Source of the DNA: Rickettsiaceae bacterium
GTDB taxonomy: Bacteria; Pseudomonadota; Alphaproteobacteria; Rickettsiales; UBA6187
Length of the DNA: 51,181 bases
Assembly (NCBI GenBank): GCA_021323415.1
Contig: JAJONM010000002.1
Coordinates: forward strand, 1-51,181
Direction: 5' to 3'
A program made the translations under genes and the position numbers. Positions 28,452 to 42,385 of the stretch are shown one piece after another (position 1 is the first letter of the stretch; each line of letters opens with the position of its first letter). The notes beneath the pieces are model-generated. The model searched no databases, was not told the DNA's origin, and saw only the letters and a program-made list of their open reading frames with translations.

Positions 28452-29693
28452 TTATACTGACTTACCATTATTATTTTGTCCGCGATTTGTTGGTTTCCTA
28501 GGGCTTTCATCGTTTTCTTCGTGGCTGGTTTCATGGGCTGAAGAAGATGTCCTTGATGCTGTTACCCTATCAGCGAAACTAGTTGTATCTCCTGTATTGG
28601 AGCGCTTCCTGGTATGTGTAACTTCCCTTTCTTTACCTTTATCATCTTTAGATGAGGAAGTAAGGTGTTCCTTTTCAGGCTCGCTACCATAACCATCTAT
28701 TTTATCTCTTGTTGAGCTGTTCGATAAGCGCTCCTCTGATTCGCTTTCTCCAGAGGAGAGTCTTATTGTTGGTGATGATTGAGAAGAGCTAAAAGATTCA
28801 TGGTTACGATGTAATGATGGACTTTTATCTGTAAATATTTTTTTTATAAGTCCAAAAAATCCAGATTTTGATTTGCTTGATGATATTGAATCAGATCTGC
28901 TAGGACTTATATTTGGTGAAGAGTAAGCGCTTGATACCGAATCGGATTTCTTGCGGTTAATATCAGGTGTTGATGGTGCGCTGTTGCTGCTAGAAGGCGT
29001 AAAATCAGGCAATGGTTTACGCTCTGTTTTGGGTGACGATGTTATTCTACCTGAGTCTGTAAATTTTGCAGAAGATGGAACAATTTCTTTAACAGAATTT
29101 TTAAGTAAATCCATTTCTTCTTTTTGTATTTCCTCTTTTAGGAAATCTTTAAATTTATCAGGTGATACATTATTTCTAATTTGTATTTTTGGTGATTGGT
29201 GCATTGCTAATATTTGATCATTAACGTTAATTGATGGTATATCATCCTCATCCACACTCCAGCTTTCCCATATATCATCTTTATCTAAAGATTCATCGGG
29301 GGAGAAAACATCTTTTTCAGGTGCTCTTTCATCTAGTATATCTATAATCGTTGGGTTTGCCATACCTTGGATTTCAAAAAGATGTGCATTGTCTACCACA
29401 TACTTTATTGATTCTTTCAGTATAGATTCATTGCTTTTTAAAAACGCTTTTACATTTGTTGCTGTTTCATCAAAATGATCCAGCACTGATGGCCGCGGCG
29501 ATGTTGCTTTAGTTTTTTCGTGCATTACAAAGTTGTTTGCAATTATTTCTATATATGAATCCTTATCTAATTCATGTTTGTCTTTTGGATTCAAACTGTG
29601 CATATACTCGATATCAAAGTAGTGAGTTACAATATCTGCAACAACGTCAAAAATTTTATTTAATGATGCGTCATCTAATTTATTTCTTGCCAT
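28452..29693 (-). CDS. hypothetical Ser-rich, disordered protein (candidate effector)
   Basis: ATG 29693 (MARNKL) behind GCAGGA; low-complexity Ser/Pro/Arg C-terminal half. Confidence 0.75.
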   Translation of the reverse strand: MARNKLDDASLNKIFDVVADIVTHYFDIEYMHSLNPKDKHELDKDSYIEIIANNFVMHEKTKATSPRPSVLDHFDETATNVKAFLKSNESILKESIKYVVDNAHLFEIQGMANPTIIDILDERAPEKDVFSPDESLDKDDIWESWSVDEDDIPSINVNDQILAMHQSPKIQIRNNVSPDKFKDFLKEEIQKEEMDLLKNSVKEIVPSSAKFTDSGRITSSPKTERKPLPDFTPSSSNSAPSTPDINRKKSDSVSSAYSSPNISPSRSDSISSSKSKSGFFGLIKKIFTDKSPSLHRNHESFSSSQSSPTIRLSSGESESEERLSNSSTRDKIDGYGSEPEKEHLTSSSKDDKGKEREVTHTRKRSNTGDTTSFADRVTASRTSSSAHETSHEENDESPRKPTNRGQNNNGKSV

Positions 29694-29793
29694 CGTTTTT
29701 CCTGCTATTATCTTAATAACAAATTGACAAATACGTGCTTTATACCTATCGCTTATTAGCAATTTTCTACAAACCTATTGTAACAGTATTGTA

Positions 29794-31374: not shown

Positions 31375-31544
31375 TAAAAGTAGTGCATAATGAAGATGAA
31401 AAATAATGAAACTAAAAATTGCAATTTGTGTCGACAAGTGTTGCGTTATTAGTTTATTTATATATAATGATATTCATCTAATAATTTTACTCACATGGTG
31501 TGATGTTATATTAGATTATTTTATAAATGAAAGTGTAATTAAAT

Positions 31545-33251
31545 ATGATGGCATACTTTCACAATAATTGTTTATATACCTTCGTTGAGCTACAACGAAA
31601 AGCCATCGAGCCCCTTCGTCAACTAGTTTCGATAAATAGAGAATTCAGTAATTCATTGTTTTCTAAATCATCAATTGGCAGATCTATTTTAGCATCGTTT
31701 GAATTGTTTGAAAGAATAACACGTAATTATGAAAAACCTGCATTTGGAATTGCACATACAAATGTGAATGGAAAAAAAGTTGCGATAAAAGAAAAAACAA
31801 TTTTATCGAGAACTTTCTGTGATCTGATTCATTTTGAAAAAGCTGAAAATTATAATCTTCCAAAAATGTTAGTAGTTGCACCATTGTCTGGTCACTATGC
31901 AACATTGCTACGTGGAACGGTTGAAGGATTGCTTCCTCACTTTGATGTTTATATCACTGATTGGGTTAATGCTCGTGATGTGCCGATGGATGAAGGTTCA
32001 TTCGGGCTTAACGATTTTGTAAGCTATGTTACTTTGTTTATGCAAACTTTAGGGCCTGACTTAAATGTTACGGCGGTATGCCAGCCATCAGTTCCTGTGT
32101 CGGCAGCAGTTTCTATTATGTCGAAAGAAAATGATCCAATGGTTCCTGCTAATTTAATATTAATGGGTGGACCGATTGATACTCGTCATAACCCGACAGA
32201 AGTAAATGATTATGCAACTGAGAAAACTATTTTCTGGCTAGAGACGAATGTAATAACAAAAGTTCCAATGAACTATGCTGGTGCTGGCAGGTCGGTATAT
32301 CCTGGATTTACACAGCTTTCAGGGTTCATGGCTATGAATATGCAGATGCATATAAAAGCACATTGGGATTTATATACTCAATTAGTTGAAGGTGATGGCG
32401 AGAGTGCTGAAGCGCATAAAAAATTTTATAACGAGTATCTATCGGTAATGGACTTGCCCGCAGAATTTTATCTAGATACAGTAAATACAGTATTTAAGAA
32501 ACATTTGTTGCCTCGTGGTAAAATGATTTGTAATGGAAAGGAAGTGCATCTTTCGGATATAGATAAAACTTCACTTCTATGCATAGAAGGTGAATTGGAT
32601 GATATTTCTGGAATCGGCCAAACTAAAGCGGCTATTACTTTATGTAAAAATATTCCAGAGAAAAGGAAAAAATACCACTTACAGAAAGATGTCGGTCATT
32701 ATGGAATATTTAATGGTAGACGTTATCGTGAGTTTGTAGTGCCAGTAATAGTTAGTTTCGTGGCTAAAAATGCCGAAACTGAAGGGCACAAAAAGAATAA
32801 AAAGGCAACCGCGCATTCTGCGGAAAAAACTGCACCGGCCAGGAAGGCCAGGTCTGTTATGCCTATACGGAATTCTTTTGCTGTGAAAACAGCGGAGAAT
32901 ACAGTGGCGGCCAGTAAGGCTTCTGCTGTTAAAATTAATGAACCAACCAAAATAGGAGTACCTAACATGACTATAGCTAAAAAACCTGCGGCTAAAAAAC
33001 CAGCTGCAAAAAAGAAAGTAGTTGCTAAAAAGAAGCCGGCTGCAAAAGCTACTGCTGTTAAAAAAGTAGCAGTTGCTAAAAAGCCAGCGGCTAAAAAACC
33101 AGCTGCTAAAAAGCCAGCTGCTAAAAAAACTGTAGCTAAAAAGCCAGCTGCTAAGAAAACTGTAGCTAAAAAGCCAGCTGCTAAAAAGCCAGCTGCTAAA
33201 AAAACTACAGCTAAAAAACCAGCTGCTAAAAAAACTACAGCTAAAAAGTAG
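31545..33251 (+). CDS. phaZ: intracellular PHB depolymerase fused to a histone-H1-like AKKP tail
   Basis: APLSGHYATLLRGTV, AVCQP (Cys nucleophile), LMGGPID, EGELDDI, VGHYGIF; then a linker of about 65 aa and AKKPAAKK repeats. Confidence 0.92.
   Translation: MMAYFHNNCLYTFVELQRKAIEPLRQLVSINREFSNSLFSKSSIGRSILASFELFERITRNYEKPAFGIAHTNVNGKKVAIKEKTILSRTFCDLIHFEKAENYNLPKMLVVAPLSGHYATLLRGTVEGLLPHFDVYITDWVNARDVPMDEGSFGLNDFVSYVTLFMQTLGPDLNVTAVCQPSVPVSAAVSIMSKENDPMVPANLILMGGPIDTRHNPTEVNDYATEKTIFWLETNVITKVPMNYAGAGRSVYPGFTQLSGFMAMNMQMHIKAHWDLYTQLVEGDGESAEAHKKFYNEYLSVMDLPAEFYLDTVNTVFKKHLLPRGKMICNGKEVHLSDIDKTSLLCIEGELDDISGIGQTKAAITLCKNIPEKRKKYHLQKDVGHYGIFNGRRYREFVVPVIVSFVAKNAETEGHKKNKKATAHSAEKTAPARKARSVMPIRNSFAVKTAENTVAASKASAVKINEPTKIGVPNMTIAKKPAAKKPAAKKKVVAKKKPAAKATAVKKVAVAKKPAAKKPAAKKPAAKKTVAKKPAAKKTVAKKPAAKKPAAKKTTAKKPAAKKTTAKK
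32967..33251 (+). CDS. nested in-frame histone-H1-like protein (94 aa, MTIAKKPAAKK...)
   Basis: AGGAG-N8-ATG exactly where the Lys/Ala/Pro repeats begin, in frame with phaZ (codon 475). Confidence 0.65.
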   Translation: MTIAKKPAAKKPAAKKKVVAKKKPAAKATAVKKVAVAKKPAAKKPAAKKPAAKKTVAKKPAAKKTVAKKPAAKKPAAKKTTAKKPAAKKTTAKK

Positions 33252-33308
33252 TAGTCGATAACTTGTTTTGACTTGGCATATGGTGTTTTTTAATATAAAA
33301 AGGGCCGT

Positions 33309-34589
33309 ATGAGTGAGTCAAAATTTCTAAAGTTATTCAATCAGCGAGGCTTTTTTCATCAGGTAACTGATGAAGAAGGCCTCTCTGCTTTTCTGGGCGA
33401 TGCTGAAAAAAAAGGCGTGCCAGCTCCTGTATATATAGGTTTTGACTGCACAGCTACTAGCTTACACGTAGGCAGCCTGGTGCAGATTATGATACTTCGC
33501 TGGCTACAAAAATCCGGCCATAAGCCTATTGTTTTACTAGGCGGAGGTACTACAAAAGTAGGTGATCCTTCTGGCAAAGATGAATCCAGAAAAATGCTGT
33601 CAGATGCAGATATACACAGTAATCTCCTTGGTATTAAGGCTGTTATTAGTAAATTTGTTGATTTTGAGGATAAATACGACGCCAAGAGCAATAAAGCATA
33701 TCTGGTAGATAATGACGAATGGCTATCCAAGCTTAATTATATTCAGGTTTTGCGTGAATACGGAAAGCATTTTTCTATCAATAAAATGCTTACTTTCGAG
33801 AGTGTAAAATTGCGTTTGGAACGTGAAAGTCACTTAAGTTTCCTTGAATTTAACTACATGATTCTACAGGCAATAGACTTCGTAAAGCTTTATGAAAACT
33901 ATGGATGCCGCTTACAAATAGGCGGTTCTGACCAATGGGGAAATATCATAAATGGTATTGAGCTTGGCCGGAAAATTAACAATGAAAATGCGGAATTATT
34001 CGGCCTTACTACTCCTCTTATAACCACCGCATCTGGCGCTAAAATGGGTAAAACCGCACAAGGTGCTATATGGCTTTCAGAAGATAGAGTTTCGCCTTAT
34101 GATTACTGGCAATTCTGGCGTAATACCGAAGATAAAGATGTAGGCCGTTTCCTTAGGTTATTTACGGAAATTACGATTGATGAAATCGAAAAATTAGAGA
34201 GGCTGGATGGCGCTGAAATTAATCAGGCTAAAATCGTTTTAGCTAATGCGGCAACTACAATTTGCCATGGGCAAGATGCTGCAAAAGAAGCAGAGGAGAC
34301 GGCGCGTAAAACTTTTGAGCAAGGTGGTTTTGGTGATTCTCTTCCTGTTATAGAGTTGCCTAAGAGTGAATTAGCAGAAGGTGTTCCTGCGTTTAAATTA
34401 CTTACATTATCAGGCTTGGCAGAATCAGGAAAAGCTGCAAAAAGACTAGTTCAAGGCGGTGGTGCAAAAATAAATGATGCTGCTATTGCTGATGAAATGC
34501 GGCTGATTACTCTTTCTGATATAAATGCTGAAGGGGTGATTAAGCTATCAAGCGGCAAGAAAAAACACGCTATCGTAAAAGCTGTTTAA
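33309..34589 (+). CDS. tyrS: tyrosine--tRNA ligase
   Basis: [32 protein letters not shown]-terminal S4-like domain. Confidence 0.97.
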
Positions 34590-37872: not shown

Positions 37873-38346
37873 ATGACTTCTGTTTTACAAGAGGGTGATA
37901 ATGCGCCAGATTTTACCTTGCCATGCGATACTTTTGAGGATTTTACGCTGTCAGCTAACAAAGGAAAAATAATTGTATTGTATTTTTATCCGAAAGATAA
38001 CACGCCTGGATGCACCCAGCAAGCTATAGAGTTTACAGAATTAATGGAAGAGTTTAAGGCTGCCAATGCAGTCGTTGTAGGGATGTCTAAGGACGATCCT
38101 GAAAGCCACCAATCGTTTAAAAAGAAACAATGTATAGGGTTCCCTTTGGTCTCTGACATTGATGTTACCGCCATGGATGATTATGGAGTGTGGGCGGAAA
38201 AAAATATGTACGGAAAAAAATACATGGGCATAGAACGTTCTACATTCCTAATTGATCAAAAGGGAGTGATCCGTAAAATCTGGCGTAAAGTTAGCCTTAA
38301 AGGGCATGTGAAAGAGGTTTTGGAAGAGGTTAAGAAGATTGCTTAG
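37873..38346 (+). CDS. bcp: BCP/PrxQ peroxiredoxin
   Basis: LYFYPKDNTPGCT, GIERSTFLID. Confidence 0.95.
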   Translation: MTSVLQEGDNAPDFTLPCDTFEDFTLSANKGKIIVLYFYPKDNTPGCTQQAIEFTELMEEFKAANAVVVGMSKDDPESHQSFKKKQCIGFPLVSDIDVTAMDDYGVWAEKNMYGKKYMGIERSTFLIDQKGVIRKIWRKVSLKGHVKEVLEEVKKIA

Positions 38347-38410
38347 GCTTTCTGCCTATCACAGGGTGCGCTGGATGGATTCTAGAGGCTTGTTATTTTA
38401 TAAAAGAACT

Positions 38411-41400
38411 TTGGTAAGTAAAAAGCTTTTACTAAAAGTGATGTGTATTTTCCTCGGTTTTGTGCTAACCGGATTTACCGATAAAGATGAAGTTTATTAT
38501 CAGTCGCACCTTGGTGAAGCTGTTTCCTTGCTAAACGGCCGGTGTAAATCGGTTGGTGATGATTTTTTTACAAAAGATTCTGAATGTGTTTCTGCTAGAT
38601 TTACAGTGCAGCGCGATATTGAGGTAAAAGAGCGGAATGCTTTAATAGAAAGCTTGCATAAAAAACGTGAAAAACTCGATAAGCTTGTAAAAATTGACGA
38701 TTTAAATAAGCAGCGTTATGCACTTTTTAAAAGCGATTTTTCTAATGATATAGAAAAAACCGGCGATTTTATTATCGAATGTTTCAAGAGTGATAAAAGA
38801 GTTGTGCAAAATGGCGTTGAATGCCTTGCATCTGTTGACTCTATGATACAGACGCTGGAAAAAAAGCGCGATGAAGAGATTGTAAAAAATGATAAAGAGA
38901 TAAAATACAAAGAGCATTATCAGCGATATTTTAGGGAAGATGCAAGCAGGATAGACCAGGTTTTAGAAGGAAGATGCAAAGAATTATTTGCTAATCCATG
39001 GTATAGTTATGACCCTGAGTTACAGGATAAAGAATGTAACATTGCTGTAGAAGAAAAACGTCGTAATAAAAGACTAAACAGTGTTACCAGAATTCAAAAA
39101 AAGCAGGAAGACAAAAGGGATTTGGAGTATTTCAAGAAACGCATTTCTGAGGCGTTTATGATGCAAAAAGATTGCGATTCTGGTTCTGAGAAAAACAAAG
39201 AAAACTGTAGCAATGCCAAGGAAGCTATCCAGCAATTTGAAGAAAATAAAAACAAGGCAGCAGAATTTAGAAAGATTTACCAGCGCGATATTCAGGCTGC
39301 CAAGAAAACAGCCGAAAGCTGCCGTGCTGGTGACAATACAGATAACGTAAAATGTTTGGCGGCAACAGCAATAATCAATGAAGATGTCCGTAAGGTAAAA
39401 GAACGGCAGGAGTTGAACCGTTATCTACTATATTACCGGGGGAATCTTGAAGAAGCCAAAAAATTATTGGTTACAAAATGTAATGTCCACAAGGAAGAAA
39501 GCTCCCAATTTGTTAAGGATAGCGAGTGTATCGCTATAAAAAGAATAGTAAATGAGGATGTTGCATTTAGGGAGCGTGATAAGCTAATTGCGCAGCTGGA
39601 GTCTATAAAAGCTAATTTATCAAAGTCTGTTGATTTACAAAAGAAAGAAAACATCCAACGCTTCAATAGTTTTAAAGAAAGTTTTGCGCTTGATAACGAG
39701 AGTGCAGAAGACTTTGTTGCATCTTGTATAAATGATAAAGAGCGTGCCTCTAACAATTCTGTGGAATGCTTTGCGTCAACGGAATCTGTGTTGGAGACCA
39801 TAAAGAAATTGCGCGAAGATGGGGTAGCAAAGTTGGAAAAAGAAGCGCAATTTAGGGATAGTTACCAAAAGCGCTTGCGCTATCTTAAGGAACATGAGGA
39901 AGAAGCTGAAGCTATATTAAATGGTAGATGTAAGGCTATTTTTTCTGATCCTTGGTATGATTATGACGTAGATATTCAGGATAGTGAATGTAATGCCGCC
40001 CTTGAAGCCAGGCGCTCTATCCGTAGGGCGGAATTACTTTCTCGTTCTGGTCTTGGTAGTGGAAAGGACTTGTCGTATTTCCGTTCAAATATCAAAGAGG
40101 CTGCTCAGGTGCAGGAGGCATGTAGTAAGGACAGTGATATAGACAAGAAATCGTGTGATGCGGCTGGGCAGGCTATCGAAGAAGATAATAGAAAGAAACA
40201 GAAGCAAGTTGAGTATAGGAGGTATTATTCAGAACATTTAGATGAGTCTAGTGAAGTTGTAAAACAGTGCCAGGCTTTAGTAGAAAAAGATGATGATAAA
40301 TGTGATGTTGTGCTTGAAATAGAAAGTAGGGAGGTAACCAGCAAACAAAATAAAGAAAAGTTAAAGCGGTTTGTTGCTTTCTATCGGAGTAATGTAAAAA
40401 AAGCTTCAGAATTTATAGCTAAAAGTTGTAATGACCTGTCTAATGTTGATGAGGTGGTGCAACTTGAATGTAAGGCGGCTGCTGAAGTTGCGAAGGAAAG
40501 TGCGGCGGCAAAAATTAACAATGCATTATTAGAAGATTTACACAAACTAAAAGAAAAGCTGATAAGCACAATAAGCGCAGAAGATGCAAATAAATCCCGC
40601 TATGAAAAACTGCGTGATAATTTTAGGTCTGATATTAATGGCGCACAGGAATTTGCTTTATTGTGTGCGAAAGATAATGTTAGGCTAAAACGCAGTAAAA
40701 TTGAGTGTCTGGCATCAGTTAACTCCCTTGTGGAATACCTTGAAGTAAATAACGAAAATGCTGCGAAGGAATCTGAAAAGCAGAAAAGCTATAAGGAGTC
40801 GAGGAAAAGCTATTTTAGGAGCAATAGTGCTGAAGCGGACAAGCTATTAGAAGGGCGCTGCAAACCGATACTTGCAGATCCGTGGTATCGCTACGATAAG
40901 GATTTGCAGGACGAAGAATGTAATGCAGCTTTTTCTGAAAAAAGAAGACGCGATGAAATGAAGCAACTTGCATCAATTATTGGTAATGAAGATGCGAAAA
41001 AAGATTTAACTTATTATAGAAAAAACCTTGCTGAAGCTAAAGTTTTTTCAGAGGAATGCGCAAATAAAGAAAAAACTGCAGAATGCGAATATGCAGTCCG
41101 GGTGTTAAATGAAAAGAAAGAAGAAGAAACTAAAAAGAAGGAATATAAGGAATATTTTAGCAGTAATGCCATTGAGGCGAAAAAAGTTGTAGATGAATGC
41201 AATGAAGAAAAAGAACAAGATAAGCTAAAATGTAGTATAGCAAACGAAGTTTATAGCAAAAATATCAGGTCTGATCGTGATAAAAAAGAATTTGCCCGTT
41301 ATGTTAACTATTATAAAGCTAATATAGAAGAGGCAAGGGCGATAGAGCAGGGCAAGTGTAAGAACTACATTGGATTAGCTGATAGCATTTTTATTGAGGA

Positions 41401-42385
41401 TTTAGAGTGCTCTGCTGTTTTTGAGGCTATAAAAATTACAGAGGCTTTAAATGGACGTGATGAATTAATTAGCAGGCTAAGCCTAATAAAAAGAAAGATT
41501 GCACCTAATTTTGGCAATACTAAAAACAAGAAATATAAAAGCTACTTAGAGTTTTTCAAAAATAACCCTGAAGAAGTAGAAAAATTTATTGCTTCATGTG
41601 CTGGAAATGGAGTCCGGGCAAAGCAAAATAACCTTGAATGCGTGGCTGCAATTGATTTTTTGAAAGACAAGCTTGAGCTGCAAAAGAAGGATGAAGCCGA
41701 TAAGCTACTGGTCGAACAAAAATATAAAGAATATTACCGTAAGAAATTTAAAGAAAATCCTAAAGTTGTTGATGATTTGCTAAGTGGTCACTGCAAAATT
41801 TTATTTGCTGATCCTTGGTACGGATATGACTCGGACACACAAGATAGAGAGTGTGATGCGGCAAGAGCGGAGCGAAATGCAGAAAGCAGGATTGCGGAAA
41901 ATATAAAATTATCTAGTGAGAAAAAGGAAGTTAAAAACATTGATTACTATCGTAAAAACGCTGATAAAGCAAAGGCATTGGCTGAAGAATGTGCAGATGG
42001 TGTAGTTACTAGCCTATCTGATTGCGAAATGGCTCTGCGCGTAGATAGGGAAGTTACTTCTAAGACTAAAAAACAAACTGAATATACTGAGTTTTACAAA
42101 GGCCATCCGCTTGCAGCGCAGTTCCATTTGCGTTGGTGCAAATCAGCGATGCTTAATTTCGATACCGAGTGCCAGGTAGTAGATGAAATTTTGAAAAACC
42201 ATAAGAATCGGGTGGATGATCCGGAATTGGTAAAGAAATATACAGAGCTTTTCCAGAAAAACCCTCACGCTGCCTTAGATGCACTTAAAGGTGTATGTGC
42301 AGAGAAAATCAAAGATTCCTGGTATTTTCTTGATGTTAATCTGCAAACTGAAGAATGTAATGCTGCGCTGGAGGTGATTAAGTAG
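38411..42385 (+). CDS. large exported Cys-pair repeat protein (4 x 5 modules + 1, EexN-like units)
   Basis: 21 C-x(8-19)-C pairs, each preceded by a Y/F-x-x-N/H/D-x-x-E-A-like helix; signal peptide if started at TTG 38411 (start uncertain, frame open from 38339). Confidence 0.85.
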   Translation: MVSKKLLLKVMCIFLGFVLTGFTDKDEVYYQSHLGEAVSLLNGRCKSVGDDFFTKDSECVSARFTVQRDIEVKERNALIESLHKKREKLDKLVKIDDLNKQRYALFKSDFSNDIEKTGDFIIECFKSDKRVVQNGVECLASVDSMIQTLEKKRDEEIVKNDKEIKYKEHYQRYFREDASRIDQVLEGRCKELFANPWYSYDPELQDKECNIAVEEKRRNKRLNSVTRIQKKQEDKRDLEYFKKRISEAFMMQKDCDSGSEKNKENCSNAKEAIQQFEENKNKAAEFRKIYQRDIQAAKKTAESCRAGDNTDNVKCLAATAIINEDVRKVKERQELNRYLLYYRGNLEEAKKLLVTKCNVHKEESSQFVKDSECIAIKRIVNEDVAFRERDKLIAQLESIKANLSKSVDLQKKENIQRFNSFKESFALDNESAEDFVASCINDKERASNNSVECFASTESVLETIKKLREDGVAKLEKEAQFRDSYQKRLRYLKEHEEEAEAILNGRCKAIFSDPWYDYDVDIQDSECNAALEARRSIRRAELLSRSGLGSGKDLSYFRSNIKEAAQVQEACSKDSDIDKKSCDAAGQAIEEDNRKKQKQVEYRRYYSEHLDESSEVVKQCQALVEKDDDKCDVVLEIESREVTSKQNKEKLKRFVAFYRSNVKKASEFIAKSCNDLSNVDEVVQLECKAAAEVAKESAAAKINNALLEDLHKLKEKLISTISAEDANKSRYEKLRDNFRSDINGAQEFALLCAKDNVRLKRSKIECLASVNSLVEYLEVNNENAAKESEKQKSYKESRKSYFRSNSAEADKLLEGRCKPILADPWYRYDKDLQDEECNAAFSEKRRRDEMKQLASIIGNEDAKKDLTYYRKNLAEAKVFSEECANKEKTAECEYAVRVLNEKKEEETKKKEYKEYFSSNAIEAKKVVDECNEEKEQDKLKCSIANEVYSKNIRSDRDKKEFARYVNYYKANIEEARAIEQGKCKNYIGLADSIFIEDLECSAVFEAIKITEALNGRDELISRLSLIKRKIAPNFGNTKNKKYKSYLEFFKNNPEEVEKFIASCAGNGVRAKQNNLECVAAIDFLKDKLELQKKDEADKLLVEQKYKEYYRKKFKENPKVVDDLLSGHCKILFADPWYGYDSDTQDRECDAARAERNAESRIAENIKLSSEKKEVKNIDYYRKNADKAKALAEECADGVVTSLSDCEMALRVDREVTSKTKKQTEYTEFYKGHPLAAQFHLRWCKSAMLNFDTECQVVDEILKNHKNRVDDPELVKKYTELFQKNPHAALDALKGVCAEKIKDSWYFLDVNLQTEECNAALEVIK

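Follow-up and report, generated by a model that had tools for sequence, protein, structure and literature searches.

The intracellular poly(3-hydroxybutyrate) (PHB) depolymerase PhaZa1 of Cupriavidus necator is the type of the enzyme family treated here. PhaF of Pseudomonas putida, PhaM of C. necator and PhaH of Caulobacter are described as granule-to-nucleoid tethers whose C-terminal DNA binding shows no sequence preference (PMC13052382, PMC3783465), and PhaM and PhaF are stated to bind the granule by one end and DNA by the histone-like end (PMC13052382). Polyphosphate granules are reported to be spaced by AlgP, which has a domain closely resembling the PhaF one (PMC13052382), and a free HC2-type protein was the second most abundant protein on the PHB granules of Herbaspirillum (PMC3783465). 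Here we describe a gene in a stretch of 51,181 nucleotides (nt) from a Rickettsiaceae bacterium (contig JAJONM010000002.1 of assembly GCA_021323415.1; the whole stretch is hereafter called the window) in which a complete PhaZ-type depolymerase runs on in frame into a tail of histone H1-like repeats, with a Shine-Dalgarno (SD)-like sequence and an ATG placed where the repeats begin.

Our reading of this gene, with a probability of roughly 0.45, is that a PhaZa1-type depolymerase has captured an H1-like gene and that a tailed tether and a free 9.6-kDa protein would both be made from one mRNA. A depolymerase carrying a tail of the PhaF/PhaM type would be new, and the conserved start site is the notable part. 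No description of a PhaZ with a histone-like tail was found in open-access papers and preprints, and database records name these proteins only poly(3-hydroxybutyrate) depolymerase.

The depolymerase and its embedded reading frame

A first-pass annotation of the window had described a complete PhaZ fused without a stop to an AKKPA-repeat tail, and an AGGAG-N8-ATG lying exactly at the onset of the repeats. Both descriptions stand: the frame is one open reading frame (ORF) of 568 amino acids with zero internal stops and with matches to TIGR01849 and HC2, and the AGGAG and the ATG lie where Table 1 gives them. The PhaZ part matched the TIGR01849 profile at 571.6 bits (7.9e-172; cut-off 300.75) over model positions 1-405 of 406, and PF06850 at 310.4 bits (5.9e-93; cut-off 27). 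Pfam HC2 (PF07382) matched residues 447-568, with 43.1 bits for the whole protein and 51.2 bits for the last 94 amino acids alone against a gathering score of 40. The internal ORF reads MTIAKKPAAKK and onward to the stop, and its ATG is the exact onset of the repeats. The residues C179, D352/D353 and H385 are invariant across 15 fused relatives, with a putative catalytic role (the alignment contained no reference enzyme); they lie near the positions given for the Cys-Asp-His catalytic triad of C. necator PhaZa1. No solved structure was matched by sequence to the PhaZ part or to the tail. An AlphaFold model computed from a 15-sequence alignment, used solely to call the tail unstructured, had a mean predicted local distance difference test (pLDDT) score of 54.5, with a confident alpha/beta core and values below 35 for residues 415-568. 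Linker and tail are predicted to be disordered.

The start signal at the junction was realised in the DNA of all three fused genes for which DNA was available, 8-9 nt before the ATG, and the residues that it encodes differ among them. The junction of the PhaZ gene under study is ataGGAGtacctaacATG, reading KIGVPN-M, with AGGAG and an 8-nt spacer; that of locus L005 is aacAAGGAGGaacttactATG, reading NKEELT-M, with AAGGAGG and an 8-nt spacer; and that of L026 is aagAAGGAGaaagttactATG, reading KKEKVT-M, with AAGGAG and a 9-nt spacer. Among 8265 deep in-frame ATGs in the long ORFs of the host, AGGAG, GGAGG or AGGAGG was found 5-10 nt upstream of 23, and any SD-like 4-mer or longer preceded 183, versus 24% of the first ATGs of 1233 long ORFs, whose starts were crudely assigned. 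The gene's own start has no SD, and the internal SD is the stronger of the two.

At the level of protein, a 5-mer SD could be encoded 5-10 nt before the junction Met in 15 of 15 fused proteins, versus 4.8% of 1637 other Met residues in the same set of 120 proteins; membership of this Met-type group of 15 depended on the Met and the repeats and took no account of SD compatibility. Within a clade of ten of these proteins the K-E pair and the Met are invariant, and the two or three residues between them vary (LT, ELT, DYT, DYI, TTT, TTV, TSV, NTV and KSV). An invariant K-E and Met on either side of a free spacer is the pattern to be expected of a nucleotide signal.

Retention of a start site does not appear to be general for H1-like tails, since among 80 other H1-like fusions, in which the module follows at least 100 amino acids, a Met near the junction was found in 18 and was SD-compatible in six of those 18; the scan was a rough one, in which at least P0136 and P0139 escaped notice. 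In P0121, P0126 (a HoxF-like diaphorase subunit), P0139 and P0153 (pyruvate phosphate dikinase, PPDK) a junction Met follows SD-compatible residues, and the HoxF-like and PPDK junctions read GEE(I/T)T-M, KEAKS-M and KEAKF-M. Fusion that keeps the start may not be limited to PhaZ.

Table 1. Features of the PhaZ-tail gene, numbered from the first nucleotide of the window.
Feature	Position	Strand	Remarks
Whole ORF	31545..33251	+	568 amino acids plus stop; predicted 62.6 kDa, isoelectric point (pI) 9.85
PhaZ-type intracellular PHB depolymerase part	31545..32774	+	residues 1-410, pI 6.9; TIGR01849 at 10-408, PF06850 at 208-409
Invariant residues of the PhaZ part	C179 32079-32081; D352/D353 32598-32603; H385 32697-32699	+	
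Basic Ala/Lys/Ser linker	32775..32966	+	residues 411-474 (64 amino acids), pI 10.35, predicted disordered; final codons contain the ribosome-binding site
Shine-Dalgarno-like AGGAG	32954..32958	+	8-nt spacer (32959-32966) to the internal ATG; inside Ile-Gly-Val codons
Internal in-frame ATG (M475)	32967..32969	+	corresponds to the start Met of H1-like genes that stand alone
Embedded H1-like gene	32967..33251	+	residues 475-568, 94 amino acids, 9.6 kDa, pI 11.56, 37 Lys+Arg, zero Asp+Glu
Tandem array of the 15-nt unit GCTAAAAAACCAGCT (AKKPA)	32976..33233	+	16.6 copies

An antisense ORF at 32723..32968 (-), of 81 amino acids and hydrophobic, was rejected as a gene; it has no Pfam hit, and its Ala/Leu/Phe-rich composition is that of the reverse complement of Lys and Ala codons.

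Fused relatives and the source of the tail

Among the 120 best homologues, 39 were at least 435 amino acids long and 81 were shorter than 435, most of them ending near residue 410-430. In 15 of the 39 long homologues (the query included) a Met stands immediately before dense KK repeats, and the others carry Lys/Ser/Thr/Pro-rich tails without a junction Met or short extensions. The loci L005, from another genus of the same family, and L026, from another family of the same order, are Met-type fusions too, and P0136 is one further Met-type fused protein. Pfam HC2 was hit (E<=1e-3) in 11 of 38 long PhaZ proteins; the junction Met is present in nine of the 11 and absent in P0114 and P0138. Conservation of the fusion together with the internal SD-ATG in orthologues had been set beforehand as a check by the first-pass annotation, and it was borne out: the arrangement was seen in DNA in L005 and L026, and all 15 proteins are compatible with it. 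The outcome named there as counting against the idea was absent: the relatives all lack a stop following phaZ, and their linkers stay in frame. The earlier comparison of the tail with PhaF and PhaM tails and with H1-like proteins that stand alone also holds, given the HC2 match and an N-terminus and SD shared with the latter.

The PhaZ parts of the two Met-type clades have diverged, with identities of 70-93% (median 77%) in the ten-protein clade and 74-86% in the window's own clade of four. There were zero stops in the linkers of the 4 + 11 rows of these clades. A neutral linker should by this degree of divergence have closed in many lineages, because Lys, Glu, Leu and Tyr codons are one change from a stop, an expectation that was reasoned rather than computed. 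In a FastTree phylogeny of 121 PhaZ domains, a set that omits 17 proteins whose His box failed the motif, the Met-type rows fell into four groups and required at least four changes, three of them forced by starred branches. An IQ-TREE phylogeny of 63 rows including P0136 gave five changes, four of them forced. A constraint uniting 17 Met-type rows was rejected (p-AU 1.4e-5, by the approximately unbiased test), the group having been designated once the first tree was known. The fused forms thus appear not to be one clade, and at least four PhaZ lineages apparently gained or retained the arrangement, with gain and loss indistinguishable.

Wider searches were also made. At least 80 distant PhaZ loci (43-65% identity) were kept from a metagenome scan with general PhaZ motifs, and none is of the Met type. 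In a GTDB-wide motif scan with 37 loci the Met-type junction was found only in L144 and L165, which add no new lineage because their tails are letter-identical to those of L005 and L026. Residues 381-568 gave 465 matches at E<=1e-3 against 1.84 billion representatives, mostly generic Lys-rich proteins, with one PhaZ (P0138) among the 150 matches listed. Two loci of one genus in the same family, L002 and L003, encode a PhaZ of 573 amino acids with a non-repetitive Lys/Ser/Thr/Pro-rich tail of about 160 residues ending in GGTKK, and the tails of P0008-P0010 end likewise; PhaZ thus appears to bear basic tails of two distinct kinds. The cultured gammaproteobacterium Oceanobacter kriegii DSM 6294 has a PhaZ (L156) with an Ala/Lys/Thr/Ser-rich tail of 194 amino acids and no junction Met.

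When the tail was searched against 400 genomes of the order, 60 gave matches, mostly small free-standing ORFs. In 15 of 17 stand-alone H1-like genes, these being the loci of the order for which the script picked a start, GGAG or GGAGG lies 5-9 nt before the start. The proteins begin with MTIAKK, MAVAKK, MTVAKK, MAIAKK and similar (M-[TA]-[IVM]-[AV]-K-K), and that of L040 begins with MTIAKK, identical to the internal ORF of the PhaZ gene. The tail is therefore best read as a whole captured free-standing H1-like gene, its start signals included. An intermediate with the two genes adjacent was not seen in the surveyed loci: no phaZ adjoined a stand-alone H1-like gene in 27 loci, and no Lys-rich ORF followed an unfused phaZ in 19 loci, nor in 31 short-tailed loci of 36 read. 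The idea that a fusion makes a separate H1-like gene dispensable, and that fusion-bearing genomes lack one for this reason, was rejected: such a gene is absent in three of three, but with matches in just 60 of the 400 genomes this is the level of chance.

The host is a soil bacterium with a genome of 2.06 Mb in 140 contigs (92.7% complete, 39.9% G+C), in which the PhaZ tail is the sole HC2 match. PHB metabolism is evidently present, with a PhaC (PhaC_N, 235.8 bits, contig C86) and a phasin (Phasin_2, 65.8 bits, contig C106) encoded elsewhere in the genome, both without a basic tail. The neighbours of the PhaZ-tail gene are housekeeping genes and there is no PHB operon at the locus: a trypsin-like protease gene lies upstream on the opposite strand, tyrS begins 58 nt downstream, and hemB, SCO1, a YhdP-like gene and a peroxiredoxin gene lie further out. 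Elsewhere in the window, the ORFs at 28452-29762 (-), of 436 amino acids, and 38339-42385 (+), of 1348 amino acids, matched no Pfam family at E<=1e-5.

One product or two

In the reading preferred here, a free-standing H1-like gene would have been captured whole by in-frame read-through, with its ribosome-binding site and start codon. The 62.6-kDa full-length product would sit on PHB granules by way of its enzyme part, and its disordered polycationic tail would attach, irrespective of sequence, to DNA or a different polyanion. The enzyme or the granule would thereby be linked to the nucleoid in the manner of the PhaF and PhaM tails. Ribosomes would start separately at the AGGAG-N8-ATG of the same mRNA and yield a free 9.6-kDa H1-like protein, the only one of the HC2 type in the genome. 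In Herbaspirillum a free protein of this type was found on the granules, so the granule is a place where the two products could come together. Put more tentatively, it is possible that selection keeps the two-in-one gene as a nucleoid-anchored depolymerase together with a free H1-like protein that competes for DNA and so sets how much depolymerase or granule is held on the chromosome; competition would follow from the shared mRNA and the shared DNA-binding module. On that view, the comparable junction starts in the fusions of HoxF-like proteins and PPDK suggest a possible common path along which an H1-like gene turns into a tail and still remains a gene. A link to chromosome condensation is speculation.

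Several observations weigh against a tethered enzyme with a separately made H1-like protein. The SD was verified in DNA for only three of 17 fused forms, the rest being compatible at the protein level, and we infer use of the internal start from conservation only. The predicted openness of the mRNA at the internal start was unremarkable, ranking in the 16th, 37th and 19th percentile for the three genes, and a promoter scan found five sites versus 7.3 expected, with none inside the gene and no support for a separate transcript. No RNA run was listed as containing the locus. The sister protein P0005 has kept an AKKP-type tail and has no junction Met, so the fusion can exist without an internal start. 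The HC2 score is barely above the Pfam cut-off, the match being of low complexity, and the tail fell below the cut-offs of NCBIfam NF038053 (Burkholderia type; 31.6-35.7 bits versus 80) and NF038052 (Hc2; 25-31.3 bits versus 135). DNA binding by the tail is assumed from its composition. In metagenomes, moreover, dozens of unrelated proteins have H1-like modules fused to them. When longer proteins were searched with the tail alone, the 120 matches listed included only two PhaZ proteins, alongside sigma-70/RpoD, PPDK, TrpC, DUF1013, CarD, DksA, CoaE and RsfS, and also peroxiredoxin, a phasin, topoisomerase I and RNase E. In the host itself, RpoD (C35:24385-26919, L172) has about 190 extra Lys/Ala/Pro/Val-rich residues before region 1.1, with Pfam matching from residue 196, and ribosomal protein L28 (C49:1961-2416, L173) has its Pfam domain at 3-61 followed by about 90 residues with a Lys/Ala/Pro-rich end. 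Given this promiscuity and these two extensions, the tail need not have a PHB-specific role, and the PhaZ fusion would be one case of a widespread habit, not a dedicated new system; the earlier description of the locus as a strong candidate for an undescribed system is weakened accordingly.

Matches similar to that on RpoD were seen in large frames of the relatives L027, L032, L033 and L049. Long Lys/Ala-rich frames occur elsewhere in the order in L036 (363 amino acids) and L041 (270 amino acids), as further fused or adjacent H1-like modules; the L041 frame runs on into a folded C-terminal part, and the L036 frame lies just upstream of a separate frame of 458 amino acids.

The alternative that survives best, which we nevertheless consider unlikely, is that the fusion protein alone is made as a functional product, the SD-ATG being an inherited leftover, or that the Met region is kept for reasons at the protein level. 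Such a leftover must have been present at first in every fused form; the junction Met is absent from the AKKP-type tails of P0005 and P0138; most other C-terminal H1-like fusions have no junction Met either; and the openness of the mRNA is not distinctive. A leftover of 5-7 nt should, however, have decayed at PhaZ identities down to 70% in the ten-protein clade and 74% in the window's own, and yet 15 of 15 proteins are SD-compatible and the SD is realised in three of three genes with DNA. In the ten-protein clade, moreover, it is the spacer residues that vary and the K-E and M that stay constant.

We also consider it doubtful that selection acts on the free H1-like protein, with read-through into it from PhaZ a tolerated accident, the disordered tail of little use to the depolymerase and the link to PHB a coincidence. 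The module is promiscuous, as the two PhaZ proteins among the 120 matches listed illustrate, and a strong internal SD in a gene whose own start has none would fit this explanation. A neutral fusion should nonetheless regain stops in its Lys/Glu-rich linker, and none is present in 15 rows of two clades. Nor was an unfused pair of phaZ and an H1-like gene seen in 19 + 31 phaZ loci or 27 H1-like loci, and PhaZ apparently gained or kept the arrangement in at least four tree positions. The association of a free HC2-type protein with granules in Herbaspirillum (PMC3783465) likewise speaks against this explanation.

Improbable, in our estimate, is a tail that anchors the protein to a polyanion other than DNA, such as polyphosphate granules, RNA or acidic lipids. 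Such an anchor is suggested by AlgP, which has a PhaF-like domain and is reported to space polyphosphate granules (PMC13052382), and by the similar extension on L28; the precedents of PhaF and PhaM and the extension on RpoD point instead to DNA.

The fusion itself is real and not a sequencing error. X1 contigs, which possibly come from the source sample, showed zero differences over 31400-33128, 33102-33203 and 33177-33400, and X2 contigs, from a separate study, showed zero differences over 31400-32885 and 33099-33203. The region 32760-32966, for which the first-pass annotation had asked that reads exclude a stop, is independently confirmed only to 32885, because X2 leaves 32886-33098 uncovered; the remainder is identical in X1. 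A relative of about 87% identity in X3 spans 32797-33130 and has a 3-nt in-frame deletion at 32920 in the linker, and the identical 568-amino-acid protein is recorded on three contigs. That a lost stop or a misassembly has joined two separate genes is highly improbable: the gap in X2 at 32886-33098 leaves some room for it, against which stand the X1 contig identical through 33128, X2 identical through 32885, the same protein on three contigs, and 17 fused relatives from several sources, all without a stop.

If the tail tethers the enzyme, the location of the depolymerase could help to control mobilisation of the carbon store, beside its expression. The retained start would be a clean natural example of a fused gene that is still two genes, and similar cases may be searched for by a signature in which a dipeptide compatible with an SD is followed, after a short spacer of variable sequence, by a Met where two domains adjoin. 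Entries of 450-600 amino acids annotated as poly(3-hydroxybutyrate) depolymerase may hide a second product.

Comparison with known systems

Mycobacterial HupB is another H1-like fusion. The H1-like fusions of sigma-70, CarD, DksA, PPDK and TrpC resemble the PhaZ fusion in having the module on a folded protein, and differ in that most have no start site at the junction. In-frame internal starts give a second, shorter protein from infB, clpB and cheA. Genes with such starts were surveyed in E. coli by Ribo-RET (bioRxiv 10.1101/520783). The PhaZ gene shares with them an in-frame SD and ATG inside an ORF, conserved in relatives; it differs in that the short form, whose production is predicted only, would equal a former independent gene.

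Stand-alone HC2 proteins, such as Chlamydia Hc2 and the Herbaspirillum homologue, have the Lys/Ala/Pro pentapeptide repeats and the HC2 match in common with the tail, and the free H1-like genes of the same order have an N-terminus and an SD equal to those of the embedded gene. In contrast to such free proteins, the H1-like gene here lies within a larger ORF and has no stop before it. AlgP of Pseudomonas aeruginosa likewise has an H1-like C-terminal repeat domain and positions a storage granule, but its granules are those of polyphosphate, and it lacks an enzyme part.

On the enzyme side, residues 1-410 match PhaZa1-type depolymerases end to end, and the host has PhaC and a phasin; the difference is the 158 extra basic residues that the protein under study carries. 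The C-terminal end consists of Lys/Ala/Pro histone-like repeats like those of PhaF and PhaM. Pfam found no phasin family on the protein at E<=0.01, and its granule-side part differs from those of PhaF, PhaM and PhaH in being a depolymerase, neither a phasin nor a PhaC activator, joined to a tail that appears to have kept a translation start of its own.

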